A stretch of DNA of 64,000 nt from Candidatus Iainarchaeum sp. (GCA_028686985.1 JAQUBA010000002.1:20745-84744), one strand, 5' to 3'. Positions 35,068 to 54,993 are shown, numbered from the stretch's first letter. Translations and numbers: made by a program. Notes: generated by a model not told the origin, from the sequence alone.

Positions 35068-36030
35068 ATGGGCACTGAAAGAACGCCTTGGTTTCGTTCC
35101 GCAATCCAGCCACACGTTCAGCCACTAACTCCAAGAATTAAACGGCACCGGTTCCCAGAGAAACTTTTTGCCCCCGCCGCTGCCGTGGCACTTTCCATAT
35201 TCATCCTCCACCCCTCCAAATCGGATGCATCCGTAATTACGCAGCGCCCCGCGCCGCCCGCGGCGAATCCGGTGGCAGCGAATCCGCGCCCCTCAACGCA
35301 ATTCGTTATTCCGCCGACCCCGGCGTTCAGCTATGATGGCGGCACGCTCGGGCTGGAGAACTCGCCGGAAGGCCTTTCGCTCGTGTACAGGAAGGAAGGC
35401 CAGAGCCCCAACCGTGTCCCGCTGGATGTGGGTTTTGAAGACATGATCGGCACCATAACCAGGATTCATTATGGCATTGGCCACTCCGTCATCATGGCGG
35501 AGAGGGTGCTGGAAGATGGCGCGACCGAATATTACGCCGTCATCACGCTCGGGGCGAGGGACGTTGCCGAGGGAAGGGCAAAACTTCCAGGGAGCGAAAT
35601 CTTGAACTCGTACGCGGTCGTGCTTCCGGAAATGCCGCTCGCGTCCTCCTTCACGGAGAGCGCGCTCTTCGTTTTCGCGGAAGGCGGCGTGGTGAGGTTC
35701 GTCCCGCTTGGCAGCGACGAAGGCATGACGTGCAAGCTTAGCGGGCTGGACGGAGTCGGCGCGCAGAGCATCGCGATGGAATACATGGGCCTATATTTCA
35801 TCATGCAGCCGGGTGCGGTCCCGCTGTATGTTACCAAGAGGGACGGCGATGATTTTGAGACCGTGCCGTGGGACTACGCGCCGGGCAGCTCGTTCACCTC
35901 GCTGAGGGTGGAGATGGGCGAGAACGGGTTCACAATCGTCTTCGCAAGCCCCGCGGGCAGCATGAGAATGGACGTTTCCGTCCCCGAGGAGGGCGGCTTG
36001 CATTCGGTTGGCGCCTCCATGCACAGGTGA
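35068..36030 (+). CDS. Hypothetical N-terminally anchored (signal/TM) protein
   Basis: 320 aa; hydrophobic segment AAAVALSIFILHP near N-terminus, Pro/Ala-rich linker. Confidence 0.4.
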   Translation: MGTERTPWFRSAIQPHVQPLTPRIKRHRFPEKLFAPAAAVALSIFILHPSKSDASVITQRPAPPAANPVAANPRPSTQFVIPPTPAFSYDGGTLGLENSPEGLSLVYRKEGQSPNRVPLDVGFEDMIGTITRIHYGIGHSVIMAERVLEDGATEYYAVITLGARDVAEGRAKLPGSEILNSYAVVLPEMPLASSFTESALFVFAEGGVVRFVPLGSDEGMTCKLSGLDGVGAQSIAMEYMGLYFIMQPGAVPLYVTKRDGDDFETVPWDYAPGSSFTSLRVEMGENGFTIVFASPAGSMRMDVSVPEEGGLHSVGASMHR

Positions 36031-36078: not shown

Positions 36079-36540
36079 ATGAGATGGCTCTTCGTCTTCC
36101 TGGGTGCACTGCTCCTCGCTTCGCTCGCATACTCCGAGCTCACGGTCTTCGCGGCGCAGATACCCGAATCCGGCGCGGTACGGTATTCCGTGGCCCAGAG
36201 GGGCGCGAGCGGCTCCCACCTTTTCATAACGGTGAAGAAGGGGGACACGCAGGTGCAGGCATTTGAGGTGCAGGACTTCAGCGGGGTCGCGAACGGTTAC
36301 ATTTCGCTTGCGGAGGGCGGCACATACCGCCTCATCGCGGTTGAGGCCGACAGCGGCGATTATGCCGAGGCGCAGTTTGAGTTCGCCGCGCCGCAGCCAT
36401 CTGTTCCACCCTCAAGCACGCCAACCTCGCTGGTGCGCGGCATCCCGGATTACCTCATCCTGATAGCCGCAGCCCTTGCCGCGGTGCTGGTGTTCCTGCT
36501 TATGTTCAGCAATCCGCTAAGGCAAAAGCCCAAAAAATGA
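36079..36540 (+). CDS. Small secreted protein with N-terminal signal and C-terminal TM anchor + basic tail (archaeosortase/PGF-CTERM-like sorting signal?)
   Basis: 153 aa; MRWLFVFLGALLLASLAYS signal; C-term PSVPPSSTPTS linker then YLILIAAALAAVLVFLLMF + RQKPKK. Confidence 0.5.
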   Translation: MRWLFVFLGALLLASLAYSELTVFAAQIPESGAVRYSVAQRGASGSHLFITVKKGDTQVQAFEVQDFSGVANGYISLAEGGTYRLIAVEADSGDYAEAQFEFAAPQPSVPPSSTPTSLVRGIPDYLILIAAALAAVLVFLLMFSNPLRQKPKK

Positions 36541-39600: not shown

Positions 39601-41424
39601 GGGGACGCCGGTCGGGCGTACAGGGATATAGAGGGCAGGACCCTGAATATTTTTGAGAGCAACATACGCGCCGCGCTTGCGGAGAGGGACAACGCAGAAG
39701 TGCGCGACGCCCTTGGGGGCGCCCTCGGCCGCTATGCGACGGAGGCATACACCAGGCTATCGCGCTATTACGGCAACCCCGCGCTCGTTGAGGAGAGGAT
39801 AAGCACGCTGGAGCCGGAGGCGCGCATGAGCTTTGAGTACGCGGCGGAGATGCTCGGGGAGGCGATGTACAGGATGCGCCTTGTGCAGACCGGCGAGCCG
39901 GAGAGCGAGGACCTGCGCATTGCATGCGTCAATTCCGCGCGTGCAATCCTGATTGTGAAAATAGAGGGCGAGGGCGGCCGCGTCGCGTTTGACAAGTTCA
40001 TGCACAACGGCAGGGAATACAACGTGGGCACTAACTCGCTCTTCACCTCCGGCAACGTGCAGTTCGCGCTGGAGGACGGGACGGTGCTCTCCAACCACCT
40101 GCTTTACGTGCCGCAGCCCGAGCCGGGCGTCGTGCTGATAGTGGGCTACATGAAGGGCAACGACAGGCACATGCTCGCGGACGAGGGCATAACGCCGTTC
40201 ATCTACGACCTGAACCAGCAGGGCCACCTCCGCGATTCGCTGGGGTTCGCCGGCCTCACGGAGAGGTGGACGTGGCACCTGCCCCTCATAGACATACGCG
40301 TGCCCGAGGAGGGGATGCTGCTTGGCGAGGACACTCCGCTGTTCAAGGCGATGGACCCGCTTGTGATGGATCTCCATACCAAGCCCACCGAGGTATCCCT
40401 TTACATAGAAGGGAATTTTGACCTCGTGCCCGCCGACTACGGCGCAGGCGCGGACATAGACGATGCGAAATTCATAATGGAGAACGTGCGCCTTGGGGGC
40501 GAACTGGTTCCTGCGGACAGGGTGTTCTCGTATGAAGGCGTATGGTTTGAGTTCAACAACTTCAGGCGCGCCGGCCAGAACAGGTACTTCGCAACCGCGG
40601 CGCCGGAGGTCACGAGCACGTATGCCGGCATGTTTGAGGAGCCGGGCGAGATACAGAACGTCGCGGAGTTCGCTGCGGACGGCCGGGTCTATGCCTACAT
40701 GCGCAACGGCAAGCTTGTGGACGCGGAGAGGCAGGCGGATTCGGAAGGCGTCATGCGCGTGTGGATAGGCACATACCGCTTCACGCTTGATGCCGAGGGC
40801 GAGCGCATAATGCCCGACGCCTCCACCATGGCGATATTGCCGGAATACAGGAGCCTGATATTCGCGCGCATAGGCAGGGAGGAGCTTGAGGCAAAGATTG
40901 CGGAGGAAAGGGCGGCGGTCGGCGAGTACAGGATTGAGATAGACCTGAACACGCAGGCGAGTTCCGTTGCCGGGGAGAGGGTGATTCCGTATCTTTACAT
41001 CCACAAGGGCCCGATAGCCCCGGAAACCGAGGCAGGCGCCGGCGCGGACCTGCGGGTCGCGGAGATATACGACGCCGAGGGGTACCTTGTGCCCAGGGCG
41101 CAGCGCATAGATGCGATTGACGCAAGGTTCCTGGCCATACAGGACCTGAGGGGCACGGAAATCACCGTGGAGTCCTGGAACGCCCTCAAGGCGGAGATGG
41201 ACGGGTTGCATGAAGAGAGGGTGAGGCTTTTCACCGAGATGCTGGGGTTCACCACGGACGCGATGGGGAGGATAGAGGCAAGCGGCATACTGCTGGACGA
41301 GGAATCCAGGGGCCGCCTGCAGACGCAGGAGGCCGCGTTGAGGGCCAACATCTCCGGAATGGGAAACGTCTGGTCGGCGTGGGAAGCCGCAAGGGACAGG
41401 GTAGACAGGCAGCTTGGATTGTGA
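36682..41424 (+). CDS. Giant hypothetical protein (1580 aa) with Q/E/A-rich and P/A-rich low-complexity linkers and a possible LysM-like segment
   Basis: Uninterrupted 4743-nt ORF with GC3-rich codon bias; TA-rich upstream region (36541-36681); antisense ORFs inside it are artefacts. Confidence 0.7.
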   Translation: MVSGSVRTTEGPTTSFGLVQQLPADRMAGAREVNFEINFTVAGAEREARQARAVLMRELGRCTFTTSLQRFIDSHRDQINYVKIAGTRMDVDGALFELEDYLEPGVAPGGYRRPAAQAVPTPTEAVPQVVQPARIEEAPLPEIRSPLEYMRQQEEERAQEQEERARAQAQQPEQAQAEQVEPPPQLQEQEGVLLTQQEAAAVEAVPEAVQEQAAEQVRENVTVINAAVPLDAEYYQREYLAPEVSEGVRTYSRVSSPHLMVMGWWGELVESCERSEALAARLDAITSQYYGALDTLEGARGTPGERALQNKVRELEGQMRAIEREMDPMLGRQGQLMVNILANLPDAYGWAMSEPSRDRDAMLADLNAIRDEWASNQAKIRDALSLREISGDIAGAFAPAFAAARRGSIENMYDVFSRMMQNSPEIAQSFVDWVALGEAARASYAAIPVGEIGAAVPTLGEATTGGAFEFRSRRGTFRITIAGEDLSGMTFAEAKRRVTELVNDQSIGNQQLLGMLTVEQLREGKEPYRFMSRYLLRTQFFQDYASGNIRVLETAPLTRGGIPASVYEVAHAPPVVAERPLPVVPQVTAPPAEAAPAPAAVAYNYGWAEGIQEELRGIVSELVNLPRFRPEETQARHDELVARGAALYREFYSHVGEAEPSEDLNRIRRWMSSAERMSSFGLALNEGGALVEAVRPAPPEAAEAVPPAAPAAVPVPAAPVAVPPTAAPVTAPPGEIYVPSVPTAPAPAPSVPVLEGQPLAAFARRYGISTDDARDLNRFQLGQRNVLEVQANSEENANRLLNLVRMEANRRGVASEYDVMPPQEAGGPYIVYYRPMGMLRAADRAAVEAQNPFAFVGFATRLPMEYAFDFAGINTRFGQAFAPYEARLVGFADAATIAQNPDAQLPAYAADTVTGLASWVFHIGGERVSGLERAGQLIYARTPQQPVALTVGEAEALFLNQREAAAFAAAFFTGDAGRAYRDIEGRTLNIFESNIRAALAERDNAEVRDALGGALGRYATEAYTRLSRYYGNPALVEERISTLEPEARMSFEYAAEMLGEAMYRMRLVQTGEPESEDLRIACVNSARAILIVKIEGEGGRVAFDKFMHNGREYNVGTNSLFTSGNVQFALEDGTVLSNHLLYVPQPEPGVVLIVGYMKGNDRHMLADEGITPFIYDLNQQGHLRDSLGFAGLTERWTWHLPLIDIRVPEEGMLLGEDTPLFKAMDPLVMDLHTKPTEVSLYIEGNFDLVPADYGAGADIDDAKFIMENVRLGGELVPADRVFSYEGVWFEFNNFRRAGQNRYFATAAPEVTSTYAGMFEEPGEIQNVAEFAADGRVYAYMRNGKLVDAERQADSEGVMRVWIGTYRFTLDAEGERIMPDASTMAILPEYRSLIFARIGREELEAKIAEERAAVGEYRIEIDLNTQASSVAGERVIPYLYIHKGPIAPETEAGAGADLRVAEIYDAEGYLVPRAQRIDAIDARFLAIQDLRGTEITVESWNALKAEMDGLHEERVRLFTEMLGFTTDAMGRIEASGILLDEESRGRLQTQEAALRANISGMGNVWSAWEAARDRVDRQLGL

Positions 41425-43156
41425 GGTGGTATGGATGAATGCACAAAGAATGGCCCGGGAGCCGCGCGAGCTTTCCGCGGATGAGCTTGTTGACGAATTC
41501 AAGGCGGTTTCGCAGACCTTCACCGGCCGTGCGACTAGCCTTATCCCCGAACTCCAGAGGAGGCTGTCGGACGAAACCCTGCGGGAGCAGCTTAGGCCCA
41601 GGGCGGGCGAGCTTGCCGATTACCTGCACGCGCTTGCCGGTGCGTTGTCTTCAAACCTTGTCATTGAGCAGGCTGAGCCGCTTGTGCAGCAGGCCCTGGG
41701 GATGCGCACCGAGTTATACCTCATGAGCACGGTTCCGGTTGAGGAGGAGAGGCGGCTCGCAGAGCAGGGCGAATCCATGGTGGGAGTCGGCTACGTGAGC
41801 AGGCCAGGCGTCCCGCCGATAGAGCAGCCTGCCGTCAGGCAATACCTGTCCCAGAACCCGCTTGATTTGGTTGACCTTACGCTGCCAATTGACTGGCTGA
41901 GGCACTTCACTGATGAATACAGAGATACCACTACGCAATTGATAAGCGATGGCTATGCGCTTGAGCTTTCGCGGGACTTTGACGGCGCGAGGGAGAGGGG
42001 CGCACAGGCGGTTGACAACATCGCCAGGATGGTGAGGGAAGGCTCTTCTGGCGGCTCGGACATGAGCACCGACAGGTTGCTCAACGAAGACCCCTCTTCA
42101 TGGACGGAAGGGGAGCGCGAATTCGTAATTGACATGCTGGGCAAGGCGGACTGGTCCGCGGAAGAGCAGGCGAGGTACCTGCCGGAGATAGTGAGCCTCC
42201 TCAGGCTCATAAACGACGGGCAGTTCACCGAGGCGTTCGACCGTGCGGCCGGCGACACCACGCTGGGCCAGGCACTCACAACCATGCTCGTGGAAACCCT
42301 GGAGCAGAGGCTCTCCGTCCATGTTCCCGTGGGCTACCTGAACATCGGCGTGGAGGGGACGGTCGTCAATGTCCGGTATTCGGACGACGAAACGTTCCGA
42401 ATGTTCCTGAGGGGCTTCCTCAGGGGCGTCCTTGACCAGAAATACAAGCCAGCAGTATCCATCCGGGAAACCGACGGGGGTTCGGCAATTGATGTCCTGA
42501 TGGAGCCGACCGACGAGTTCGCGTTCGGAGGCATAGGCGGCGGTGGCGGAGTCGGCTTTGAAACTACCGCAGCCCATCCGATGAGGACTGTTTCTCTTGA
42601 GCTGGATGCGGCCTACGACCCTGTCGCGGACAGGCCCGTTTTCACCGGAAGGCTGGAGTTCTCGGACCAGAGCGGCGAGTGGACCGCCCCGCTGGACGGC
42701 GTAATCTACCCCTCGGTTTACCTGGAGGGCGGCGTGGACGCATCCGGAACAACCGGCCATGTGGCGGTGGGGGCGATGGTTGAGGCTGGCTCCTCGTATT
42801 TCATTTTCGGAGACTGGAGCATGTTCATGCTGCTGAGCCTGGATTACATAAAGAGGTTCGGCGAGCCAATAGTGGCGCCGTCAGAAAACCTTGAATTGGG
42901 CTTCGGGGGAAGGGTTGTTTATTCCGACGTCGTCTCGCTCAGCGGAAGGTATTTGCTCAACCCGATGAATGAGAACATGGGATTCATCGGGCAGGCGATG
43001 GTCAATGTGGGCGCAGGCGTGTCCCTTGGTTTCTCCGGCGGCTTCAGGGAAGTTGACATAAACATTTTCAGGAGCAGCCAGGCGATAATAGCGCCTGAAC
43101 TGTCTTTCAACATCGGATGGAACATAGACGATTTCATAAAATACCTTAGGGAATAG
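41414..43156 (+). CDS. Hypothetical protein (580 aa) with Gly-rich beta-rich C-terminal half, overlapping the giant gene by 11 nt
   Basis: Start overlaps giant-gene stop; C-terminal alternating hydrophobic/Gly pattern (GFGGRVVYSDVVSLSGRYLLNP...). Confidence 0.55.
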   Translation: MDCEVVWMNAQRMAREPRELSADELVDEFKAVSQTFTGRATSLIPELQRRLSDETLREQLRPRAGELADYLHALAGALSSNLVIEQAEPLVQQALGMRTELYLMSTVPVEEERRLAEQGESMVGVGYVSRPGVPPIEQPAVRQYLSQNPLDLVDLTLPIDWLRHFTDEYRDTTTQLISDGYALELSRDFDGARERGAQAVDNIARMVREGSSGGSDMSTDRLLNEDPSSWTEGEREFVIDMLGKADWSAEEQARYLPEIVSLLRLINDGQFTEAFDRAAGDTTLGQALTTMLVETLEQRLSVHVPVGYLNIGVEGTVVNVRYSDDETFRMFLRGFLRGVLDQKYKPAVSIRETDGGSAIDVLMEPTDEFAFGGIGGGGGVGFETTAAHPMRTVSLELDAAYDPVADRPVFTGRLEFSDQSGEWTAPLDGVIYPSVYLEGGVDASGTTGHVAVGAMVEAGSSYFIFGDWSMFMLLSLDYIKRFGEPIVAPSENLELGFGGRVVYSDVVSLSGRYLLNPMNENMGFIGQAMVNVGAGVSLGFSGGFREVDINIFRSSQAIIAPELSFNIGWNIDDFIKYLRE

Positions 43157-43166
43157 GTGGAATTAT

Positions 43167-45140
43167 ATGAAAAAAACCCTGTTGTTCATGGCGTTGGTCC
43201 TCTGCGTTTCGTTCGCCGAGGTTGTGGTCACGCAAGCATATGAGGGAAACCTTTACACTCCCAACACCCCCCCGGCTTATTCGCGGGTGCATATGGAACC
43301 GTTCCTCTATTTTGAGGACACGCTCGTAGTTTCCACGGATTCCCGCGTCATCTATGGCGGCCCCGCCGATGATTTGCAGCAGGATGCCATAATCTGCGAA
43401 GGGGACGTGACCACCTCCGCGGATGCGGACGGGGAATGGGCGCATGGCGGATTCTACCAGCATGTATATTACCTGCTCCCCTGCGAACCTCCATCCTATA
43501 GCCGGGTCAGCAACAATGTCCCGATATTCTGGGACGCGGACTCGTATGATGCGCTTTTTCCGGAGGATGTCTGCAACGAGGGCGAGCCCGGATGCTGGGG
43601 CATGGAGGGCTCCCCCATACGGCAGAGGGTGGACGTTTATGAGAAGTACGATGGCAGCGTGACTTACTCAAACAGGGAGGGGCAGACCAACGTGGTCTGC
43701 AAGGGAGTCACTACGCTCAGGTACGATGGCACGCTTCTGGACAGCTCGGTAATCGGCGACGCGCCCACCGGGGGGTCCATGCGGCTCACCCACGGGATGC
43801 ACACCATAACAAACGGGATGGATGTGCAGGGATGCCTCGGGGTGACCCGCAACGTTGCATGCGATGCGACCTCCGAACTCAGCGAGAGGGTGTTCGGGAG
43901 GACAAGCGCGCAGTTCGGCTCAGGGGCACCCGGATACTCAACCTCGCTCCAGTCCACAATGAACATCCGCGTCGTGACCGATGCGGACCTCCGCTGCAGC
44001 GCAGAGGCGGTTTCAGTAACCCCCTCCCCGGTGAATGTTTCCCCAGGGGGAACGCAGCGCATCACCATAACCGTGAGGAATGCATGCCCCTCCTCTGACC
44101 CGCTGTGCCAGCCCATTACGGTAACGGGGGTCACGGCCAGCAACGGCTTCAGGTTCAATTTTGACACAGGGGGAATGCTAGTCCCGCTCGGCTATTATAC
44201 CGTAAATCCGGGGCAGGCAAAGACGTTCAACGGAATCCTCACCGCCCCCGCATACACCACATGCCCAACCCGGCTCACGTTCACCGCGGCATACACCTGC
44301 CCGGGATGCACGGGCACTTTCAGCGGCACGCCCGCAACGGTAAATATCCCGTTTGACTGCCCTCCCCCGCCAGAAACGGAGGAGAACATCACCAACCTGG
44401 TGCCTAGCTTCACCCCGGACCTGCCAACCCGTGTAGACATAGAGACGGGCGGCGAACTTGACTTCAGCGTCATAACCTGGAACAACGGGCAGAACACCAG
44501 CAATCCCGGCGAAACGTGCGTGAACATAGGCAACTGGATGGTCAGCGGCCCGATTCCCGGCCCGAGCATAAGGATTTTCCTGGACCTTCCAGGCATATCA
44601 CCGATACGCTACTCATACGGTGCAATACCCCCGGGCGGCTCGGTCGTGCACGAACCCATAAGCTTCGCATGCACCCCCGCGATGGAGAACATGACCTACG
44701 TGCTGATTGCGAACGTGGACTGCATACCTCCTGGAAATGGCACAACCACTGAAACGGACGAGTCGGACAACATCGTGACAAGGGTGTTCAACTGCAGGCC
44801 AGCAACGGGCAACGAAACGGAGCACGAAGGCGAATACAACTGCGACATCAGCCCCTCGTTCCAGACCGGCTACCCGCTTGGCACATACTCCTTCCACGTG
44901 ACCTGCCCCGATGAAGGCAATCCGGACGACATGTGCGGCGGCTCCATAGACTGGGACTCCTCCTCGCGCAACGTGACATACACCGGTTCGGACGACCTGG
45001 ACTTCTACCGCATAATTGTTGGCGGCGCAACGCTCCCCGGCAGCGTATCCATAGTGGCGGACGTAAGGTATGATGACGGAAACGCGACCTGCAGAGCCGA
45101 GCTGAATGTCCCCACAGTCCCGTGCGAAGAATTTGTGTGA
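43167..45140 (+). CDS. Secreted cysteine-rich surface/adhesin-like protein with CARDB/DUF11-like repeats
   Basis: 657 aa; signal peptide MKKTLLFMALVLCVSFAEVVVTQA; 30+ Cys; repeated beta-sandwich-like segments (VNVSPGGTQRITITVRNAC..., VDIETGGELDFSVITWNNG...). Confidence 0.6.
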   Translation: MKKTLLFMALVLCVSFAEVVVTQAYEGNLYTPNTPPAYSRVHMEPFLYFEDTLVVSTDSRVIYGGPADDLQQDAIICEGDVTTSADADGEWAHGGFYQHVYYLLPCEPPSYSRVSNNVPIFWDADSYDALFPEDVCNEGEPGCWGMEGSPIRQRVDVYEKYDGSVTYSNREGQTNVVCKGVTTLRYDGTLLDSSVIGDAPTGGSMRLTHGMHTITNGMDVQGCLGVTRNVACDATSELSERVFGRTSAQFGSGAPGYSTSLQSTMNIRVVTDADLRCSAEAVSVTPSPVNVSPGGTQRITITVRNACPSSDPLCQPITVTGVTASNGFRFNFDTGGMLVPLGYYTVNPGQAKTFNGILTAPAYTTCPTRLTFTAAYTCPGCTGTFSGTPATVNIPFDCPPPPETEENITNLVPSFTPDLPTRVDIETGGELDFSVITWNNGQNTSNPGETCVNIGNWMVSGPIPGPSIRIFLDLPGISPIRYSYGAIPPGGSVVHEPISFACTPAMENMTYVLIANVDCIPPGNGTTTETDESDNIVTRVFNCRPATGNETEHEGEYNCDISPSFQTGYPLGTYSFHVTCPDEGNPDDMCGGSIDWDSSSRNVTYTGSDDLDFYRIIVGGATLPGSVSIVADVRYDDGNATCRAELNVPTVPCEEFV

Positions 45141-46484: not shown

Positions 46485-46543
46485 GCACTAGTTTTGAGGG
46501 AAACGTATATAACGCTGCTTAACGCAATACCACCGGTGCCGTT

Positions 46544-47152
46544 ATGGTGCAACCGAGGCAGGCTGACAAGGACTATGCGACTGAGGCGGTCAAGCAGGGC
46601 ATGTCGCTTTCGGAAACATCTTACTCCATCGCCGGGAGGGGTCTCGTTTATATTGCGACCGACAGGCCGCAGAGCTCATTCAATTCAGTTGACGCCTACA
46701 TCCAGTACGTCTATGAAAACAGGCACGACCGCGACCGGGTGCAGTTCATAAACATAGACAAGAACAACCGCTACAACTCGCGCAGCGAGCAGGACCTTAT
46801 CACAAGGGCAATCGCGGAGCAGGAGGGTGTGGAGACAGTCCCGCCTTTCCGGAGGGAGGCGATGCGGGTCGAGGAAACGGAGAGGAGGGAGACGGAGATT
46901 GTGCGCGTCAGTTATGCGGGAAGCCCAGTGAGGATTGAAGTGGACGTCACCGACATGAGGCAGGTGGACAGGGATTCGCTCAGGCAGGACATAGAGCGGA
47001 TGGGGCGCAGGCCGGATGAGAATGCCCTGTTCAGCCTGGTGGACCGGTATTTTCCCTACATAGACAGAATCACCGTGCGCGGCAGGGAAGTTGAGATGGG
47101 CAATTCCGGATCTGCCATGTCGGACATAAACAGCATTTCCGGGCATGTGTGA
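46544..47152 (+). CDS. Family-A paralog 1 (lineage-specific hypothetical; shares N-terminal YIATDR...YVYENRHDRD block with 50673..51389)
   Basis: 202 aa; ~50% identity over N-terminal 100 aa with A3; TATA-like acgtatataacg ~35 bp upstream. Confidence 0.55.
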   Translation: MVQPRQADKDYATEAVKQGMSLSETSYSIAGRGLVYIATDRPQSSFNSVDAYIQYVYENRHDRDRVQFINIDKNNRYNSRSEQDLITRAIAEQEGVETVPPFRREAMRVEETERRETEIVRVSYAGSPVRIEVDVTDMRQVDRDSLRQDIERMGRRPDENALFSLVDRYFPYIDRITVRGREVEMGNSGSAMSDINSISGHV

Positions 47153-47373
47153 CCGGGATTATTCAACGGGTGGAACGTATGGCAAGGGCGGAAGGAATGA
47201 AGTCCGTGCGTGTGAACGTTGCGGAAAAGTGGGAACAGGTAAAGGACGCGGTGCCGGTAAGGCTTCTGGACGCCAACCCCAAGGCGGAACGCCGCGCAAG
47301 GGATGGATGACGCATGCCACGCGGAGCACATGCAACACGGGGGGAAAGGAGGGAGGGGCAGAGCGAGCTTGAG

Positions 47374-48657
47374 ATGACGCGCCAGCAGGGCTTCACCGTA
47401 TATGGGCCGGTGAACGTGCCGGGCTATGGCGACATACACGTCGCATCAAGGGACATATGCGTATCCCCGCAGGAGCTGAGGGACTACGCCTACCGCGTGC
47501 TGTTCCCGGAATCCGCGGAAGGCAGCCCGAGCGACCGCATAAGGTTCCTGCGTTCCGGGGATACGAACTGCACCTATATCGCAATGGAGGAGGTGCGCGA
47601 GATATTCAGGAAGATAGACTGGAATGCGATATCCATGTCCGATGGCAGCATCTCCTTCCCGGACTTCAACGCAGAGCTGCAGTTCGTGGAGCGCAGGGAC
47701 TACGGCGGCCCGCTTCAGGCTCCCAGCCAAGCGCCCGCGGCATCCGAGGTTTCCGCCGCGCCGGTTTCCCGCGAAACCGAACTTCCGCAGGAAGGGGCGA
47801 AGCGCGCGGAGGCGGCAACCCGCGAGGAAGGCATCCCATACCTGGACCGGGAGCCGAGCTCCGTGGACGCAAGCCACATAATCTGGGGCGACTACTCATC
47901 CATCGTGGAGGGCACGCGCCGCACCCAGCCCCCTGAGCTCACGCAGCTGCAGAGGGAATACTTCGGGCTGAAGAGCGACGCCACATTTTACTGGAGGTCG
48001 CGCGGCACCGAAGGCTACGTAGCAATCTATTTCAATTTCATTTCCCCCGAGGGCGAGGCACAGGACACTCGGCAGCTCGCGCAAGAGCTCGCGGAGACGG
48101 AAGGGGACCTTTCCGCGCTCATCAGTTTCGTGCAGAGGCACATGGCAAACATCGCGGATGTGAACGTGGAAAGCGACCGGGGCGCGGGCGCGAACCTCAC
48201 CTCCGTCCAGCTGATTGCCGCGCTCTCCGCGATGGCGGGGCTGGAGCCGGCGTCCGCCGCAACGGAGCCCGTGCCGTCCATGCATGGGGGCAAGGCAGCG
48301 GTTTCGGCAGGGCTTGCCCAGGAACAGGCAGAGGAATACGGCGCACAGGTGATTGCCTACCCGGGCGACAACGTGATGGCTTCATTCCCTTCCATCACAT
48401 ATACGATGCGGGACGGCAGGACCGGCACCCTGGACGGATACTTCACGGTAACGCTCCCTTCGGACGAGCTTGAGGCGTGGAGGGTGCTCGTGAACATGCA
48501 GAGGATTGCGCGCGCACTGGAGCGGGGCGAAGCGATAAACGCACCGCTGCGGGACCTGCTCACGAATCACAGGGACAGCATAAGCTTCGTGGAGATGCAG
48601 GACTCCAACGGCACCCGCCTCACCGCGTCGCAGATAATCTACCGCTTGGAGCAGTGA
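47374..48657 (+). CDS. Hypothetical protein within paralog array (divergent member or distinct)
   Basis: ORF 47314..48657 (447 aa), start possibly at MTRQQGF; acidic, Ala/Glu-rich middle. Confidence 0.4.
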   Translation: MTRQQGFTVYGPVNVPGYGDIHVASRDICVSPQELRDYAYRVLFPESAEGSPSDRIRFLRSGDTNCTYIAMEEVREIFRKIDWNAISMSDGSISFPDFNAELQFVERRDYGGPLQAPSQAPAASEVSAAPVSRETELPQEGAKRAEAATREEGIPYLDREPSSVDASHIIWGDYSSIVEGTRRTQPPELTQLQREYFGLKSDATFYWRSRGTEGYVAIYFNFISPEGEAQDTRQLAQELAETEGDLSALISFVQRHMANIADVNVESDRGAGANLTSVQLIAALSAMAGLEPASAATEPVPSMHGGKAAVSAGLAQEQAEEYGAQVIAYPGDNVMASFPSITYTMRDGRTGTLDGYFTVTLPSDELEAWRVLVNMQRIARALERGEAINAPLRDLLTNHRDSISFVEMQDSNGTRLTASQIIYRLEQ

Positions 48658-48660
48658 GCT

Positions 48661-49533
48661 CTATTGCTGCGGCGGCGCGAGGTCTTCTCCGGATATTTCC
48701 ATTTCCCCCCCTCCATGCAATATGGCGTATCTGCCGCCCGCATTCCTTATCTCCGCCCTGCCGCGCACCGCTTCCGGGAGGATTATGGTGCGCATATCTA
48801 TCCGGGGCGTGCCGCCGAAATCCGCGGAGAGGACGTATGCGTTCGCGCTCCCCTCCTGCACGAGTATTGCGACGCTTCCAGCGGAAAGCAGCTGCCACCC
48901 TTCGGATGGCGCGAACTGTTTCTCGGCATACGGCACCCTCTCCATGCTCCAGCCCCTTGCGCCCAGCACCCCATCCCTGTTTATCATGAACATGCACGTC
49001 ATTCCGTTGTTGTGCGCGGCCGCAACCGAAAGGAAGTTCTCCCCCCTGAACCTGCTGTCCAGTTCAAAGGATATGGCCCTTGCGTCCCTGACCTCCCCCC
49101 CATCAACCGTTATCCACTCGTCCCCCCTTTCCGCCGCCTTCCATCCCATGACGAGCACTGCCCTGTCCTCCGAAACCACGACCGTGTGCTCCTCCCCCGG
49201 GACCATGGCCACAATCCTCCCGGGCTCGCCGTCCACCAGGTAGGTGAACCTGTAGGTGCCGTCCTTGGTCTCATATTCCATGCCGTACCTGAGTTTGGAT
49301 TCTGTAGCCCTGAAAAGGAAGCCGGTCTCCGCCCCGGCCCCGTTGCCTTCGGCCCGGAACCTCTCCTCGCCGAATTCAAATTCCTGCATATCGTTTTTCC
49401 TGGGCCTCACATCCCACCTGTCGAGGGGCACCGGGACGGTTTCTTCCCCCGCTGTGGCGTGCGGGCCGAACTTCTCATTTTGCACGGGCACCAGGCCCAT
49501 ATCGCCATATCTCTGCCCGCCTCTTTTCGCCAT
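48661..49533 (-). CDS. Family-B paralog 1 (no obvious signal peptide)
   Basis: 290 aa; shares GEEHTVVVSEDRAVLVMGW / GEQHSVVLTENYMMVVPG and C-terminal blocks with 53358..54275. Confidence 0.5.
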   Translation of the reverse strand: MAKRGGQRYGDMGLVPVQNEKFGPHATAGEETVPVPLDRWDVRPRKNDMQEFEFGEERFRAEGNGAGAETGFLFRATESKLRYGMEYETKDGTYRFTYLVDGEPGRIVAMVPGEEHTVVVSEDRAVLVMGWKAAERGDEWITVDGGEVRDARAISFELDSRFRGENFLSVAAAHNNGMTCMFMINRDGVLGARGWSMERVPYAEKQFAPSEGWQLLSAGSVAILVQEGSANAYVLSADFGGTPRIDMRTIILPEAVRGRAEIRNAGGRYAILHGGGEMEISGEDLAPPQQ

Positions 49534-49625
49534 GCATGAACTGGGTTCGGAAGAGTATATATTCCATTCGTGCGCAAAAAGAAAGATATTTAAATAAGCT
49601 CAACTGGATTATAGTGGGTGAAGTT

Positions 49626-50474
49626 ATGCCTGCACCGATGGTAAGACCTGAGAGGGAATTGAGAAAGGATTATGAAGCGACCCAGCAGATGCAGGTCGGA
49701 CAACTTCAGACCGAGTATGCTGATAGGGGATTTACAATTCTGAGGGCCGGTACGGACCTTGAAAATGTCAGGAGGAACATCTGGGCGGCATACGACCCCA
49801 AGACAGGGGACACTTATGTGTTCAGCGGTACGCGCGAAACCAGCTTCGGGACCAGCCAGTCGGTGTTGGACGCGGTTGGCAGATGGGTGGATAAGAGGAA
49901 TGCAGACCTTGCATTCAGCGAGACGATGGACGACACCCAGAGGCAGATCGACCTGAGGGGTTCGCGCGAGAGCGTGCGCAGCATGGACGCGCGCATGCAG
50001 GCATATTTCACCGAAGGAACGCAGCAGCCGGCGCAGGTGGCGAGGGAAACCCCCGCGCAGCCGGCCGCACGCGCAGCCGAGCCGGTGAGGGAGGAGCGCG
50101 CCCCGGCCACTGAACAGGCCGCCCCAAGCACGGCAGAGCCTGTCGCAAGGGAAGCCCAGCCTGCGGCCGCCAGTCGGCAACAGCAGGCGCTTGCAGATGC
50201 GATACGGACGGGGCAAAGAATGAGGATTCCAGTGTCCCAGAGCGGAAGTGAGCGGGTAATCATTACAATAGACGCTAGCCAGCTAAGCGAGTCAGATAGG
50301 TCTTTCCAGGCAAACCGGGCCGAGAGGGGCATTATCAACACTCCGGTTGGCATAATAGGGCTCTATAGGCTTTCCCGGGAGAATCCTGGCGCAATTTCTT
50401 TTACTTATCCTGATGGCACTCAGGTATCGGAAGATGATTTGCGCACCCGGGGCTGGCTCCCTCCGCGGGCATAG
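49626..50474 (+). CDS. Family-A paralog 2 (motif-bearing)
   Basis: ORF 49536..50474; start moved to MPAPMV downstream of TATA-like atatttaaata; contains VIITIDASQLSESDRSF motif; Pro/Ala/Glu-rich middle. Confidence 0.45.
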   Translation: MPAPMVRPERELRKDYEATQQMQVGQLQTEYADRGFTILRAGTDLENVRRNIWAAYDPKTGDTYVFSGTRETSFGTSQSVLDAVGRWVDKRNADLAFSETMDDTQRQIDLRGSRESVRSMDARMQAYFTEGTQQPAQVARETPAQPAARAAEPVREERAPATEQAAPSTAEPVAREAQPAAASRQQQALADAIRTGQRMRIPVSQSGSERVIITIDASQLSESDRSFQANRAERGIINTPVGIIGLYRLSRENPGAISFTYPDGTQVSEDDLRTRGWLPPRA

Positions 50475-50672
50475 CACCCGTTCCCGCCCTTCTTTTTCTT
50501 CTTCATCAATGGTTAATGGCATTTATGCGGGGGCTGGCACCGGCGGCATTGCCGGATGCGGCACGCAGCCGCCTGAACGATGGGCATGAAGCCCTCCGGA
50601 GCCGCCCGCCCGTATCCACCGACGCCCACCATTAGGTATAAATATGCTTGCAACGGCGTATATATCGGTGAA

Positions 50673-51389
50673 ATGATGCCAAGGGTAACCGAACAGAAAA
50701 GGGATGAGGTCATTGAGGCCGCGGACCACGGGATGACTTTTTCGGGGCAGTCTTATCAGGTACGCAACCTTGGGGACATCTACATAGCCACCGACAGGAG
50801 GCGCGATTCATTCTCAAGCAACGAGGAATACGTGAGATACGTATATGAAAACAGGCATGACAGGGACAAGGTCAGGTTCATAAACGAGGAGCAGAACAAC
50901 CTCTATAAGGCGACAAGGTACCAGGACCGGATTGCCGTGGAGATCGCCAGGCAGGCGGGCGTGGAGGTTTCCGCACCGCCGACCAGTTTCCCGGAGGAGG
51001 CCCGCAGGGCGGAGCAGGCCGCAGAGCAGCCGCAGGAGACGGTCACCCGCGAGAATGTGGAGGTGCGCGAGCAGCAGAGGGAAGAAACGGCAATCTTCAG
51101 GGTTTCTTTCTGGGGCAGGCCAGTCCGGTTTGAGATGGACGTTTCCAACCTGTCCGAGCTGGACAGGGAGTGGTTGCGCGGCAGCATAGACAGCCTGGCA
51201 AGGGCGAATGCGAGCAACATGGAGGACACGTTCTCTACGTTCATAGACAATTTCAAGGACAGGATGAGGGGGCTCAGCATGGAGTTTACGACCGAGAACC
51301 TGGATAGGTACTGGGGCGCGGTTCCTTATGGGAATATGACGGGCGCCGAGGTCGTTGCCCAGATGCGCAGCCTTATCGGCAGGGTCTAA
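50673..51389 (+). CDS. Family-A paralog 3
   Basis: Aligns residue-for-residue with 46544 paralog from the second Met; TATA box ggtataaatatg ~30 bp upstream of MMPRVTEQ; motif RFEMDVSNLSELDREWL. Confidence 0.55.
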   Translation: MMPRVTEQKRDEVIEAADHGMTFSGQSYQVRNLGDIYIATDRRRDSFSSNEEYVRYVYENRHDRDKVRFINEEQNNLYKATRYQDRIAVEIARQAGVEVSAPPTSFPEEARRAEQAAEQPQETVTRENVEVREQQREETAIFRVSFWGRPVRFEMDVSNLSELDREWLRGSIDSLARANASNMEDTFSTFIDNFKDRMRGLSMEFTTENLDRYWGAVPYGNMTGAEVVAQMRSLIGRV

Positions 51390-51392
51390 TAG

Positions 51393-52265
51393 ATGGGAAA
51401 GAATCAGGCCCGTTCCGACGCGGAGCGCGACTCCGGGGCAAGGAAAGGCATCCGCACGCCGCGGCGCGGCGCCACTGCCAAGATTATCGCCGCGGGGCTG
51501 ATGCTCGCCCCCAATCCAGCACACGCGCGCAGCCCTTCCCAACCCGCCGTTTTCCAGCCCCCGGCATCCGGAACATCAGGCACATCCGACCTGCTCTCAC
51601 CGCAGCCCGAGCAGATCCAATACTCTGAAGCGTTCAGGGACGCCGATTTCACCTGCGAAACAGGCGGTGGGATGGTGCGCATAAGCGGGAATGTGGAAGG
51701 CGGAAAGATTGAATTCCCGGCCCCGGCGGACCTGGGCGCGGTGCGCGGCATATACCGCACAGGCTCCCGCATCCGCGTGCTTTCCGACAATTACCTGATA
51801 ACCGCGCGGGCCAGCGGCACCGATGCAATCAACGTTTCGCTTCCGCAGGGGGCGAAGGGAGCGCTCTCCGCCTGGCTTTCCACCGAAAACACATTCTACA
51901 TCCTTTCCTCGGACGGGAACGTGCATGCGACAAACCCGGAGGACACAAGTTGCCCGTGGTATTCCGGGGGGCCGTTCCGCACGGTGGAGGGCGCAAGGCT
52001 CATGGAAGTGAGAGGTTTGCTCGCAATCGTGCAGGGCTCTGCAACGGCAGTCATACTCGTCAAGGTCGTCCCGGGCGGCGCATGGGATTCGCTGTCCGTT
52101 CGCCTGAATTTCCAGCCCGAGGGGGAACCGTCCGTTTCCATGACCCCAACCGGATTCAAGGTGGTTTTCGGGAACTGCGAAGTGGCGCTGGACATACCGG
52201 GCGAAGGGGAGATGGGCTCCGTGCTCCCCATCGTCACAAGGCACGAGCCAGCCAATCTGCCTTAA
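51393..52265 (+). CDS. Family-B paralog 2 with twin-arginine-like signal peptide
   Basis: 290 aa; TPRRGATAKIIAAGLMLAPNPAHA; homologous blocks with 53358 (RGLLAIVQGSATAV vs RGLLLVLQSGALPV). Confidence 0.5.
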   Translation: MGKNQARSDAERDSGARKGIRTPRRGATAKIIAAGLMLAPNPAHARSPSQPAVFQPPASGTSGTSDLLSPQPEQIQYSEAFRDADFTCETGGGMVRISGNVEGGKIEFPAPADLGAVRGIYRTGSRIRVLSDNYLITARASGTDAINVSLPQGAKGALSAWLSTENTFYILSSDGNVHATNPEDTSCPWYSGGPFRTVEGARLMEVRGLLAIVQGSATAVILVKVVPGGAWDSLSVRLNFQPEGEPSVSMTPTGFKVVFGNCEVALDIPGEGEMGSVLPIVTRHEPANLP

Positions 52266-52364
52266 TTTTCAATTTTATTTTTCTATCCTGCCATTCCCAG
52301 CCGCACTTCTGCAATCCACGGAAAACTATATATAGCTGACCGAAGGATTATCATAGGTGATGAT

Positions 52365-53342
52365 ATGGCTCAGGCACACAGGCAAACTGTATCCCAGTTA
52401 AGAGACCAATTGGCAAGCCAGGGTTTTGTGGAAAATACATTGATGATAGGCGGAGCGCAGTATTCTGTTTGGATGAAGGGCTGCAGCGACCTGACCAATC
52501 CTGAAACGGTTTCCCAATTCATGCAGGGCAATGCACGAAACCGAAACGCCCTCCGCGTGTTCGCGGTAGACAATGGGCAGATTGCAGTCAGCTCGCGCGG
52601 CATAGAGGAGCTCCATTCCAACGAAAGGATCAGGGGCCTTGGGGAGAGATATGGCGGCGCCACAAAAGAGGCCCGCGAATCTTATGAGCGTGAGCACCCG
52701 CCGGCAGCCTTCATCAGGGAAGCGGCTGAATCAGAGGTGCGAGCAGAGCCAGCGCCGGCAGCCCAGCCCCCGGTTGTGCGGGCCCCCGCAAGGGCGGAGA
52801 GAGTTGCGGCGCAGACGACCACGCAGGGCGCGCCATTTACAGTATATGTATTTAATACTGTCATTGAGCCCACGCAATTCCGGCCAGGCTCATATGATAT
52901 GACACACTCCCATTCAGAAACGTATCATATTGACCTTAACAGGCTAAGCGCGGCGGAACGCCGTACCTACGAGGATTTGAGAGGCAAGTACTCAAACCCA
53001 CGCACTGCATACGATCCAAATCAGATGAACACGGATTTGCAGGCGTTTATTGACAGGGTGAGCGCGAGGAATGCGTGGATCAATCCGGGTGCCGCCACGC
53101 AGGGAACTGAGTTTTCTTTCACCCAGCTTGCCGCGGGCGCCAATGTAACATCTGACGTGACCGAATCATACACATTCAGGATTGACCTCAATGTGCTTGA
53201 TGACGGCCAGCGCCGCCGCCTAAACGCTTTGCTCGGGGTTTTCAGCAACAACCCGACCGAGGCCAATAACCTGGAAAGAATGCAGGGCTTCCTGAATTCC
53301 CTCCCAAGCGGAGCGGTGATACAGAGGCCAACCATGGCGTAA
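52365..53342 (+). CDS. Family-A paralog 4 (two copies of the hxhDhNxL motif)
   Basis: 325 aa; YHIDLNRLSAAERRTYEDLRG and FRIDLNVLDDGQRRRLNALLG; N-terminal similarity to 54379 (RIRGLGERYGG vs LGERLGERGG). Confidence 0.5.
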   Translation: MAQAHRQTVSQLRDQLASQGFVENTLMIGGAQYSVWMKGCSDLTNPETVSQFMQGNARNRNALRVFAVDNGQIAVSSRGIEELHSNERIRGLGERYGGATKEARESYEREHPPAAFIREAAESEVRAEPAPAAQPPVVRAPARAERVAAQTTTQGAPFTVYVFNTVIEPTQFRPGSYDMTHSHSETYHIDLNRLSAAERRTYEDLRGKYSNPRTAYDPNQMNTDLQAFIDRVSARNAWINPGAATQGTEFSFTQLAAGANVTSDVTESYTFRIDLNVLDDGQRRRLNALLGVFSNNPTEANNLERMQGFLNSLPSGAVIQRPTMA

Positions 53343-53357
53343 AAATCGGCTGTTCGG

Positions 53358-54275
53358 CTATTGGGCCTGCGCTCGGGTTTCTACGGCTACGGACAAGGTT
53401 GATGCATCGCCTTCCGTGCCTATCGTTATTGTGAGCGTTGCATTTCCCCCCCTCAGGACAATGGACCCAGCATGCGATTCTACCGAAACGGGCCCCTCCA
53501 GCGCCGGATTCAGCGGGTAATCCGCTTCCACCCACCCATCGCTCCCTGGCATGGCGCCCTGGAAAGCAAGAACCGGAAGCGCTCCGCTCTGCAGCACAAG
53601 GAGCAGCCCCCTGAATGCCGCCAGTTTCGCGTCTTCGCCGATTCTAGTGTTCGGGAGGCTCCTCTCCCAATCCCCATCCGGGTCAGAGACGTCTATGACA
53701 TAAATCCTTTTCTCCGGAGTCAGGAAATAGAAAAGGTTCCTTTCATTGTCAAATGCATGCTCATTAAGGGCATCCGGAAGCAGGATATCCATGCTTGAAA
53801 CAGTTTCCCATTCGCTGTTCCTTCCGGGCACCACCATCATGTAGTTTTCAGTGAGAACGACTGAATGCTGTTCCCCGACCATCACGTCCTTCACCGCACC
53901 GCGTCGCTCCCTCGCGATGCTGTCAAAATGGACTTTCTTTTCGCCTCCGCCAGGGAGCGCATAAGTGAGCTCCATCCCGCAGTCGCTCTCCCTCACAGCA
54001 ACCTGCGCATTCCTGAATGTCTCCGCCATCCCTTCCGTGATGCAGCCCATTTCTATGGTGAAGCCTTCTATAAGGATTTCTTCGGTTGGAGGCCTGCCTT
54101 CGGAAGGGGCCTGTGCGGCAGTGCGCGGAGGAAGGGGAAGCTCCCGAGGGGGCACCCTCGCCCCGGCTTCCGGAGCCGCCAGCATGATAGAACCTGCAAT
54201 CGCAAGGGCAAGGGAACGGCGGGTTCCCGTTTCACATTTTCCTGCCCCATTTTTGCTCGCAACTGGAATTGCCAT
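53358..54275 (-). CDS. Family-B paralog 3 with twin-arginine-like signal peptide
   Basis: 305 aa; GTRRSLALAIAGSIMLAAPEAGA; convergent with A4. Confidence 0.5.
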   Translation of the reverse strand: MAIPVASKNGAGKCETGTRRSLALAIAGSIMLAAPEAGARVPPRELPLPPRTAAQAPSEGRPPTEEILIEGFTIEMGCITEGMAETFRNAQVAVRESDCGMELTYALPGGGEKKVHFDSIARERRGAVKDVMVGEQHSVVLTENYMMVVPGRNSEWETVSSMDILLPDALNEHAFDNERNLFYFLTPEKRIYVIDVSDPDGDWERSLPNTRIGEDAKLAAFRGLLLVLQSGALPVLAFQGAMPGSDGWVEADYPLNPALEGPVSVESHAGSIVLRGGNATLTITIGTEGDASTLSVAVETRAQAQ

Positions 54276-54378
54276 AGTATAACCTTGGCTGGGAAGGCTT
54301 TTTAATACTATTACACACTTTCTAACACACTAACGGAAACCTTTAATAATAATGATAAGGTAATGTTGATGTGATATT

Positions 54379-54993
54379 ATGTCAAATGGTGGACAAATAA
54401 CCCGAGAAAGGCAGCAACCTGCCGAGACAGCGGCACAAGCCCATGTTTTCACCTATAACGAAACATTGACCCAGACGCTCCCCAATGGAAACCAAATCAG
54501 CTACCAGATTGGCTCGGATACTGTTGATGTGCGGGATGCACGGGGCATCCTTAAAGCACTCACAAACGCCCCAAGCCAGGTGAGCGTCCTCCGGATTGAG
54601 GGGGACCAGGAAGTAGAGCTCAACGATCTCCAGAAACACGAGCTGGGCGAGAGGCTGGGAGAACGCGGCGGCGATTTTGCCCTCGCTGGAGGCAGGGTTG
54701 AGCTTACCGGTGCGCCTGAAATCACCGTAATTCCCACTGAAGAGGTTGCCGCGGAAAGGCAGCAGGCAAGGTGGGTTACGATAAGAAGCAACGAATATGA
54801 ACAAAATGTTAGCGCTGAAAACCAACGTTCCTATTCCAGTGTTGAGATAGACATGAACGCGCTTACCGACGACCAAAAGCGTGAATTGGGCTTTTTCAGG
54901 GGCGGGCAGTCCTCCCTCAGTTCGCAGGAACTTCTGGCTTGGAGCGGAAGGGCGGAAAACCACTCAGTGGTCAGAAACAGGACGCGGCATTAG
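54379..54993 (+). CDS. Family-A paralog 5
   Basis: 204 aa; VEIDMNALTDDQKRELGFFRG motif; TA-rich promoter-like upstream region. Confidence 0.5.
   Translation: MSNGGQITRERQQPAETAAQAHVFTYNETLTQTLPNGNQISYQIGSDTVDVRDARGILKALTNAPSQVSVLRIEGDQEVELNDLQKHELGERLGERGGDFALAGGRVELTGAPEITVIPTEEVAAERQQARWVTIRSNEYEQNVSAENQRSYSSVEIDMNALTDDQKRELGFFRGGQSSLSSQELLAWSGRAENHSVVRNRTRH

Follow-up and report, generated by a model that had tools for sequence, protein, structure and literature searches.

We analyzed a 64,000-nucleotide stretch of the genome of Candidatus Iainarchaeum sp. (GCA_028686985.1 JAQUBA010000002.1:20745-84744; hereinafter, the window), which comes from a contig of 123 kb in a metagenome-assembled genome (MAG), PHQ80, of the Candidatus Iainarchaeum type, that is, of a tiny, symbiotic-type DPANN/Nanobdellati archaeon. 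A second MAG from the same population, PHY95 (GCA_028712065.1), includes a contig 99.66% identical to that of PHQ80. Positions 46544-54993 of the window are occupied by an array of nine open reading frames (ORFs) that coincide with the depositor's gene calls (locus tags PHQ80_01200-01245), all annotated as 'hypothetical protein'. The array belongs to an island that spans ~34.2-55.0 kb of the window, with a G+C content of 0.60 compared to about 0.55 in the flanks, and is interrupted solely by the housekeeping gene for a beta-CASP RNase. As detailed below, it is well supported that this is a vertically inherited, fast-evolving, clade-restricted island of DPANN archaea of the Candidatus Iainarchaeum type, which encodes two protein families without relatives in the databases.

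The proteins of one family, M (A1-A5 and X), share a common architecture, in which a variable N-terminal domain is joined through a disordered linker rich in P/A/E/Q/R to one or two modules of 70-100 residues (M modules); the N-terminal domain of A1, A2 and X is denoted N1. The other family, B, includes predicted beta-propellers, most of which carry export signals. The ORFs of the array are as follows, with identities given relative to the orthologs in L006, a locus of a related archaeon.

46544..47152, plus strand: A1, N1 domain, short linker and one M module; opens the unit A1-s43-X; 68% identity to the L006 ortholog
47179..47310, plus strand: s43, conserved ORF of 43 amino acids between A1 and X; called in L001, L006, L007, L009 and L010
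47314..48657, plus strand: X, 447 amino acids, N1 domain, linker and two M modules; the most conserved member, 71% identity to the L006 ortholog
48661..49533, minus strand: B1, beta-propeller family, without a signal peptide; convergent with X; ratio of nonsynonymous to synonymous substitution rates (dN/dS) 0.40
49626..50474, plus strand: A5, N-terminal domain without detectable relation to N1, long P/A/E/Q linker and a variant M module; motif ITIDASQLSESDRSFQ
50673..51389, plus strand: A2, N1 domain (residues 20-100), disordered linker (101-136) and M module (139-238); opens the A2-B2 operon
51393..52265, plus strand: B2, predicted exported beta-propeller with an RR signal, a P/S/T-rich stalk to residue 82 and then ~5 blades; starts 3 nucleotides (nt) past the A2 stop
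52365..53342, plus strand: A3, unclassified N-terminal domain, linker and two M modules; strain-specific; two motif copies
53358..54275, minus strand: B3, beta-propeller with an RR signal, predicted to be exported; oriented convergently to A3; strain-specific
54379..54993, plus strand: A4, unclassified N-terminal domain and one M module; strain-specific; motif VEIDMNALTDDQKREL

The initial annotation described the array as nine lineage-specific genes of two paralogous families in alternating arrangement. The nine genes are real, as indicated by the ORFs, the depositor's calls and dN/dS values of 0.22-0.40, and the paired, two-family organization, with signal peptides in some of the B proteins, is borne out. 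The two families do not strictly alternate, however, the actual order being A-(s43)-A-B-A-A-B-A-B-A, and the initial description lacks a tenth conserved ORF inside the interval, s43 (57% identity to its L006 counterpart, E 7e-13, tblastn), as well as related genes outside it. The short spacers between A and B genes were confirmed, with 3 nt between the convergent X and B1, 3 nt between A2 and B2, and 15 nt between the convergent A3 and B3; the remaining gaps are 26 nt (A1/s43), 3 nt (s43/X), 92 nt (B1/A5, divergent), 198 nt (A5/A2), 99 nt (B2/A3) and 103 nt (B3/A4, divergent).

An all-against-all comparison of the array proteins (BLASTP and Smith-Waterman with shuffled controls), the check that had been proposed initially, showed that the best 10 of the 36 pairs were all A-A or B-B. 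The unity of B1, B2 and B3 was confirmed by the pairs B1-B3 (p 4.5e-4) and B1-B2 (p 8e-3) in the Smith-Waterman shuffles and B2-B3 in BLASTP (E 1.4e-9), by the full-length agreement of an 11-sequence alignment that includes the orthologs, and by leave-one-out hidden Markov models (HMMs) that, against 599 decoy ORFs of the window, retrieved B1 (from a model without any B1 sequence), B2 and B3 at 1e-6, 4e-11 and 6e-18, respectively. The same approach, with models including the distant propellers, identified a fourth member, B0, encoded upstream of the array (2e-45 to 6e-5). Three of the four B proteins combine an N-terminal signal with a P/S/T-rich stalk.

Structure prediction, also suggested at the outset as a test for a beta-propeller, yielded an AlphaFold2 (AF2) model of B2 (11 sequences) with a mean predicted local distance difference test score (pLDDT) of 59, and 55-84 over residues 83-290, in which residues 1-82 correspond to the signal peptide and a P/S/T/Q-rich stalk, and the rest is all-beta, with ~5 groups of 3-4 strands. 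Judged by the radial layout expected of 4-stranded blades and by structural superposition on known propellers, the B proteins are, by prediction, small beta-propellers with ~5 blades. Compared to known propellers (WD40, PQQ/BamB-like, RCC1-like), family B is unusually small, at ~205 residues with ~5 short blades in a model of low confidence, and it has no significant sequence match among them: in Pfam, RCC1-like was matched at E 0.05-0.07 and KIB1-4 at E 0.0055, neither near its cut-off; in the comparison with RCC1-like, WD40 and Kelch models, PF25390 scored 13 bits (cut-off 150) and PF03478 scored 16.7 bits (cut-off 27.4); and in the PDB, the B profile reached an RCC1-repeat chain only at E 0.54.

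The initial annotation further noted that two of the B genes encode RR-containing signal peptides, and indeed, B2 and B3 start with RR signal-like N-termini (TPRRGATAKIIAAGLMLAPNPAHA and TGTRRSLALAIAGSIMLAAPEAGA, respectively), with the twin arginines in the contexts TPRRGATAK and TGTRRSLAL. The characterization of the entire family as bearing signals for twin-arginine translocation (Tat) was nevertheless an overstatement. The PRR element is retained in the B2 orthologs, but RR is absent in the signals of B0 (KRHRF) and of the homologs in the distant loci L013 (KFRN), L020 (NPRF) and L017 (PRFYRGK). Among the proteins of the 64-kb window that were scanned for domains, no Tat component was detected, and the assignment of family B to the Tat pathway, made from signal sequences, is weak.

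None of the M proteins A1, X, A2, A5, A3 and A4 contains a signal peptide, and the A proteins lack hydrophobic segments. A1, A2, A4 and A5 each possess one M module, and A3 and X possess two. The AF2 model of A2 (seven sequences, pLDDT 72) consists of two confidently predicted domains connected by the disordered linker (residues 101-136): an N-terminal alpha-beta-beta-alpha-beta-alpha domain (residues 20-100, pLDDT 75-87) and a C-terminal beta-beta-alpha-alpha-beta-beta-alpha domain (residues 139-238, pLDDT 78-91). By this model, the M module, which is located at the C-terminus after the disordered linker, has the topology beta-beta-alpha-alpha-beta-beta(-alpha). Foldseek comparison of the A2 model with BFVD produced nothing significant (best E 0.076), and the structure comparison revealed no match of the A2 fold to a toxin.

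Comparison of shallow family alignments with hhalign failed to link most of the A members, so domain-wise shuffles, leave-one-out HMMs and bridging proteins were required. When linkers were removed, the best 14 of 83 domain pairs were all between N-terminal domains or between C-terminal domains, with p values of 3e-5 for the two modules of A3, 6e-5 for the second module of A3 and that of A4, 1.4e-3 for the two modules of X, and 7e-3 for the module of A2 and the first one of A3; for the N-terminal domains of A2 and X, p was 7e-3. In searches with HMMs of the C-terminal module from which one family at a time was omitted, each omitted member ranked among the best 10 of ~600 ORFs (ranks 1-3 and 3-6 for the modules of X, and 1, 4, 7 and 10 for A5). 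The short motif that had been reported for all A members including the gene at 49626..50474 is present as well: the 16-residue pattern h-x-h-D-h-[STN]-x-[LM]-x3-[DEQ][RK]-x2-h, which was defined post hoc, occurs in six copies, in A1, A2, A3 (twice), A4 and A5, with no further copy when the window is translated in all six frames (shuffle expectation 0.0006). The block RIRGLGERYGG/LGERLGERGG, initially taken to unite A3 and A4, did not withstand scrutiny, with 812 of 2000 shuffles scoring as high; A3 and A4 are related via their C-terminal modules.

Bridging proteins connect the domains further. P0028, one of the eight clusters retrieved with the A1/A2 profile (see below), combines an N-terminal domain of the A1/A2/X type (6e-9 to A2, 1.4e-6 to X) with an A5-type C-terminal half (1e-36 to the A5 ortholog in L010, 7.5e-7 to A5 of the window), and P0023 and P0027 join a different N-terminal domain to an A2-type C-terminal domain. 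The N-terminal domain of X is tied to those of A1 and A2 through P0028, P0024 and P0026, and by alignment. Therefore, by sequence comparison, X is a member of family M, with an N1 domain and two M modules, and domains have recombined among the paralogs. The concept of family A as a single paralogous family holds for the closely similar A1 and A2, whereas the other members are linked by the weakly conserved C-terminal module, and the N-terminal domains of A3, A4 and A5 are not detectably related to those of A1 and A2. We also considered one N-terminal domain common to all of 'family A' and rejected it, since the N1 HMM (A1/A2/X) found no match in the N-terminal domains of A3, A4 and A5; neither did it match those of P0023 and P0027.

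The part of the island upstream of the array, between ~34.2 kb and the beta-CASP RNase gene, encodes the following proteins.

34253..35056, plus strand: A0, 267 amino acids, without a signal peptide; ends 11 nt before B0; by position, the counterpart of the small proteins that precede the B0 orthologs
35068..36030, plus strand: B0, fourth member of the propeller family, 320 amino acids, Sec-like signal KRHRFPEKLFAPAAAVALSIFILHPSKSDA
36079..36540, plus strand: 153-amino-acid protein with an N-terminal signal peptide, a C-terminal hydrophobic transmembrane anchor and a basic tail; assigned to the island by position only
36682..41424, plus strand: p1580, giant protein without a signal peptide or transmembrane segment, with several P/A-rich linkers
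41435..43156, plus strand: p580, 573 amino acids by the depositor's call, without a signal peptide or domain match; syntenic with p1580 and p657
43167..45140, plus strand: p657, Cys-rich protein with the Sec signal MKKTLLFMALVLCVSFAEVVVTQA; fast-evolving (61% identity to the L006 ortholog); found in synteny in all relatives

A0 has no Pfam match and could not be assigned to family M, the sole similarity being a marginal one (p 0.007) to a 115-amino-acid protein that precedes the B0 ortholog in L015. B0 is orthologous to the propellers of L013, L015 and L020 (36.6% identity to the 303-amino-acid B protein of L013, E 2e-45). In the window, B0 is located ~11 kb upstream of the array, but its orthologs lie inside the cluster elsewhere, pointing to rearrangement within the island. 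The giant protein p1580 is probably a member of family M: its residues 31-92 match the M-module HMM (independent E value 0.0012 among 600 ORFs) and lead into a P/A/Q/E linker, and additional M-like motifs occur at residues 476-490 and 1416-1424, one of which, FRITIAGEDLSGM, is kept in the L020 ortholog; the identity to the L006 ortholog is 26%. The Cys-rich p657, with the C-terminus IPCEEFV that is conserved in the L013 homolog, is always located between the giant proteins and the beta-CASP gene; neither p657 nor p1580 has a Pfam or PDB match. The 153-amino-acid protein has a build typical of archaeal surface-anchored proteins, judging by its predicted signal and anchor.

The gene order of the array is conserved in a related archaeon. 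On a 1.03-Mb contig (L006/L011), the order is p1673, p586, p681, the beta-CASP RNase, A1, s43, X, B1 (on the opposite strand), A5, A2, B2 and nifU-sufS-sufC. L006 is the only locus that spans both flanks; L008 covers the portion of this order on the nifU side, and the fragments L004, L005, L007, L009 and L010 agree. A3, B3 and A4 are absent from the L006/L011 locus, and the clusters that contain them consist of sequences from the window strain only: the A3 cluster includes the PHQ80 and PHY95 MAGs and a Logan contig of the same strain, and that of B3 is a singleton. Thus, the presence of A3-B3-A4 alone varies, the rest of the array is syntenic, and this is not a shuffling cassette; B3 is not a recent duplicate of B2 because the two are only ~25% identical.

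The cluster evolves fast compared to its flanks. Identity to L006 is 47-71% for the cluster genes vs 94% for the beta-CASP RNase, 91% for SufS, 94% for SufBD, 82% for SufC and 79% for NifU, and dN/dS is 0.22-0.40, at unsaturated dS values of 0.65-0.97, vs 0.04-0.20 in the flanks. Hence the cluster genes are functional, yet fast-evolving. Between the two MAGs of the population, which are 99.66% identical, single-nucleotide polymorphisms (SNPs) are too few for selection tests, apart from an oddity in B1: 9 SNPs distinguish B1 of the window from that in L001, of which 7 change amino acids and six are packed within 26 bp (48791-48816), whereas sufBD in the same comparison contains 21 SNPs with 4 amino-acid changes. 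The excess in B1 might be due to diversifying selection, to a patch of recombination or to a chimeric assembly. Separately, the two MAGs differ by a dense cluster of SNPs in sufBD (58700-59071) and by an indel of 12 bp at 62027, which suggests that recombination took place locally or that strains were mixed in the assembly.

In distant lineages, represented by L013, L015/L016 and L020, A-like and B-like genes lie beside the beta-CASP gene (~75% identical in L015/L016), and L017, a short contig without the beta-CASP gene, contains the same tight A-B pair. In the recurring unit, a gene without a signal precedes that of a signal-bearing propeller at a distance of 2-11 nt, as seen for A2-B2 (3 nt) and A0-B0 (11 nt) in the window, for proteins of 186 and 303 amino acids in L013, for proteins of 168 and 299 amino acids in L020, and for P0027 and a B2-like protein in L017. 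In four of the five lineages, the upstream gene encodes a demonstrated M protein; in the A0-B0 pair of the window, it is unclassified. The gap between the M-type protein and the propeller in L013, L017 and L020 is 2-10 nt.

Runs of at least 7 A/T are nearly limited to intergenic DNA in the array region (~60% G+C), and A/T boxes are located 30-40 nt before the ATG of A1, B1, A5, A2, A3, B3 and A4, in agreement with the TATA-like boxes ~30 bp upstream of several A genes in the initial annotation; none precedes s43, X or B2. GGTGA-like Shine-Dalgarno elements are found ahead of A5, A2 and A3.

46506..46512: A/T box TATATAA, 38 nt from the A1 ATG and 28 nt from the beta-CASP start; the sole such box in the 59-bp divergent spacer 46485-46543
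49556-49563: A/T box of B1
49586-49597: A/T box of A5
50637-50645: A/T box of A2
52327-52334: A/T box of A3
54299-54307: A/T box of B3
54342-54353: A/T box of A4
52262..52282, plus strand: T-rich stretch TTAATTTT.AATTTTATTTTT where B2 ends; resembles a terminator of the A2-B2 unit

Oligo-T tracts act as terminators in archaea. Because the boxes are absent before s43, X and B2, the likely transcription units, as predicted from these signals by the general rules for archaeal promoters, are A1-s43-X, B1, A5, A2-B2, A3, B3 and A4. The TATATAA box in the spacer from which the beta-CASP RNase and A1 genes diverge may serve the two genes as a common, bidirectional promoter element.

The claim that the genes are lineage-specific, undescribed and outside any known family was upheld by extensive searches. 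Among 5.8 billion proteins, A2, B and X fall into 6, 11 and 4 clusters, respectively, and with the A1/A2 profile, only 8 clusters emerged from 1.84 billion representatives in a full HMMER search. The relatives are confined to a few MAGs and short metagenome contigs; a scan of genome contigs with X hit two species only, metagenome-contig scans with B3 and with the A1/A2 alignment found no relatives (for B3, no close relative), and none were detected among the IMG/VR viral contigs. Scans of all ten array proteins against Pfam, PHROGs (best E at least 0.011), PADLOC and NCBIfam, and searches of PDB sequences, for which the A and B profiles as well as X, p1580 and p657 served as queries, yielded nothing significant, and our literature searches found no description of these families. 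PADLOC had a single sub-significant match, of residues 5-59 of A3 (52365-52540) to Cas2_II (E 0.0011, 17 bits), and none for the other nine proteins; this match is probably due to a generic helix-strand element rather than homology.

Neither family, nor their combination, fits any known system; the only hallmark of one that was found is the generic propeller fold. In the A2 model, the predicted beta-beta-alpha-alpha-beta-beta topology of the M module is that of the T-fold (QueD/PTPS, FolB/FolX, QueF, urate oxidase), to which any assignment would be tentative. The juxtaposition of a signal-less protein with an RR-signal protein resembles the pairs of Tat substrates and their partners (TorA/TorD, NapA/NapD, hitch-hikers), but the island encodes no cofactor-binding domains and no homologs of the chaperones, and RR is not family-wide. 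The arrangement in tandem pairs, the fast divergence, the recombination of domains and the additional, strain-specific copies are reminiscent of polymorphic toxin and effector/immunity systems, from which the island differs in lacking toxin or immunity domains, in the reversed polarity of secretion, and in its syntenic core under purifying selection. The orphan, clade-restricted families of a reduced genome, some with signal peptides, are similar to the lineage-specific hypothetical families of DPANN archaea (PMC8204110, PMC9258230); the titles and abstracts of these surveys do not describe this pair of families or the organization of the island.

We favor, with moderate confidence, the explanation under which the island is a clade-restricted two-family system where the M modules mediate docking and the propellers serve as their partners. 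Given that the predicted topology of the M module is that of T-fold domains, which form rings edge-to-edge, this module could be a docking or oligomerization domain, and the M paralogs would then make up a hetero-oligomeric assembly in which the N-terminal heads differ and are held on flexible tethers. Each propeller would bind, as its cognate partner, the M protein of the neighboring gene, which might meet it before or during export, and, because most of the propellers are exported, the system probably would serve the cell envelope or contact with a host or partner cell. This specific mechanism, a docking M assembly partnered with exported propellers in an envelope or contact role, is tentative. 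Still more speculative, and in our view rather doubtful, is an extension to the whole 20-kb island as a new envelope-associated apparatus of a small clade of Iainarchaeota, with a cytoplasmic M ring or scaffold and external propellers for contact with the host or partner. It would include four propellers, exported alone or with an M partner, at least seven M proteins with the giant p1580 among them, the secreted Cys-rich p657 and the membrane-anchored 153-amino-acid protein.

Several observations weigh against the explanation we favor. The kinship of M modules beyond A1 and A2 comes from single-pair p values of 1e-2 to 1e-5 and HMM scores below 20 bits, the fold is modeled for A2 only, in a single predicted structure, and the confidence of the B2 model is low. 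No propeller gene adjoins A1, A5 or A4, B1 lacks a signal peptide, and in a tiny genome packed with genes, a conserved neighborhood says less about functional linkage than it does in larger genomes. Furthermore, M proteins have no signal peptides whereas most of the propellers do, so that a stable complex needs a route across the membrane; pre-export escort, Tat hitch-hiking or no interaction at all are possible ways around this topology.

Two of these routes amount to alternative functions for the M proteins. Each M protein could be a dedicated cytoplasmic escort of the adjacent propeller that keeps it export-competent or proofreads it, and itself stays inside the cell. Such an escort would follow the logic of TorD, DmsD and NapD, chaperones that bind the signal peptides of Tat substrates. 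Tat chaperones are typically encoded beside their substrates, and an escort accords with the order seen in every lineage, where the gene of a signal-bearing propeller comes after a signal-less one in a tight operon that is probably coupled in translation, and with the RR motifs in B2, its orthologs and B3. We nonetheless regard this as unlikely: M proteins outnumber the propellers, with A1, A5, A4 and p1580 lacking an adjacent one; B1 has no signal although an M gene adjoins it; the tethered two-domain build and tandem M modules are unlike known export chaperones; scans of the Pfam/NCBIfam type found no similarity to the TorD, DmsD and NapD families; and RR is not kept in distant members of the family. 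Distinctly less probable is hitch-hiking, whereby M would fold and bind the propeller in the cytoplasm, the complex would be exported by Tat via the propeller's signal, and both proteins would act outside. Hitch-hiking on Tat is established for signal-less subunits, for example, the large subunits of hydrogenases, and the RR n-regions, weakly hydrophobic h-regions and AxA sites of B2 and B3, the PRR conserved in the B2 orthologs, and the tight A2-B2 coupling are consistent with it, but the signals of B0 and the distant homologs lack RR, and propellers require no insertion of a cofactor in the cytoplasm.

The initial annotation interpreted the array as effector/immunity or polymorphic-toxin pairs, or as variable surface-antigen cassettes that diversify by duplication and recombination. 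The pairing, the fast evolution, the presence or absence of A3-B3-A4, the recombination of domains between paralogs and the preponderance of amino-acid-changing SNPs in B1 (7 of 9 between the two strains) could all be accommodated by such a scheme. However, no model of a toxin, nuclease, peptidase, immunity or defense protein was matched in Pfam, PHROGs, PADLOC or NCBIfam, and no delivery machinery or trafficking domain is apparent in the annotated part of the window. The polarity is wrong, too: the exported partner is a propeller rather than a candidate effector, and in place of a small immunity gene, the neighbors encode propellers of 290-320 amino acids, mostly with export signals, two of the four being convergent rather than downstream. 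With the core order and the site conserved between species, dN/dS below 0.41 for all genes, and both members of a pair evolving at similar rates, this interpretation appears highly improbable. Least credible of all is the remnant of a mobile element, an integrated virus, plasmid or other, with paralogous orphan genes. The orphan genes, the slightly elevated G+C and the strain-specific A3-B3-A4 are in line with such a remnant, but there are no integrase, capsid or replication genes, no PHROGs, BFVD or IMG/VR matches, and no tRNA gene adjoining the island (no search for flanking direct repeats was made), and the same site and order recur across genomes that share 75-94% identity in the housekeeping proteins of the flanks.

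The genomes of DPANN archaea are tiny, with up to half of the genes unannotated, and, to our knowledge, little has been learned about the ways in which these archaea attach to partner cells and exploit them. The island accounts for about 2% of a ~1 Mb genome, occupies one site across species and evolves ~4-8 times faster than its neighbors. With exported binding modules and a new modular intracellular family, it is a concrete candidate, open to testing, for machinery of the envelope or of interaction that is specific to the lineage, and it opens to structural work two new protein families and, within them, what may be a new docking domain. These considerations should be kept in proportion: orphan clusters are common and expected in DPANN genomes, the two families come from a handful of metagenome-derived genomes of a tiny, uncultured clade, and the role proposed here is an inferred one.

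The remainder of the window is ordinary chromosome, with genes for aminoacyl-tRNA synthetases, enolase, RFC, thymidylate kinase, PRPP synthase, the suf operon and ribosomal proteins interspersed with many unannotated genes; an Rfam scan of the window identified two tRNA genes and nothing else. Among the unannotated genes are two large ORFs without a Pfam match, at 29689-32451 (minus strand, 920 amino acids) and 62115-63377 (minus strand, 420 amino acids). The ORF at 20894-22603 (plus strand) encodes a 569-amino-acid protein in which TPR repeats at the N-terminus are joined to an AAA ATPase domain.

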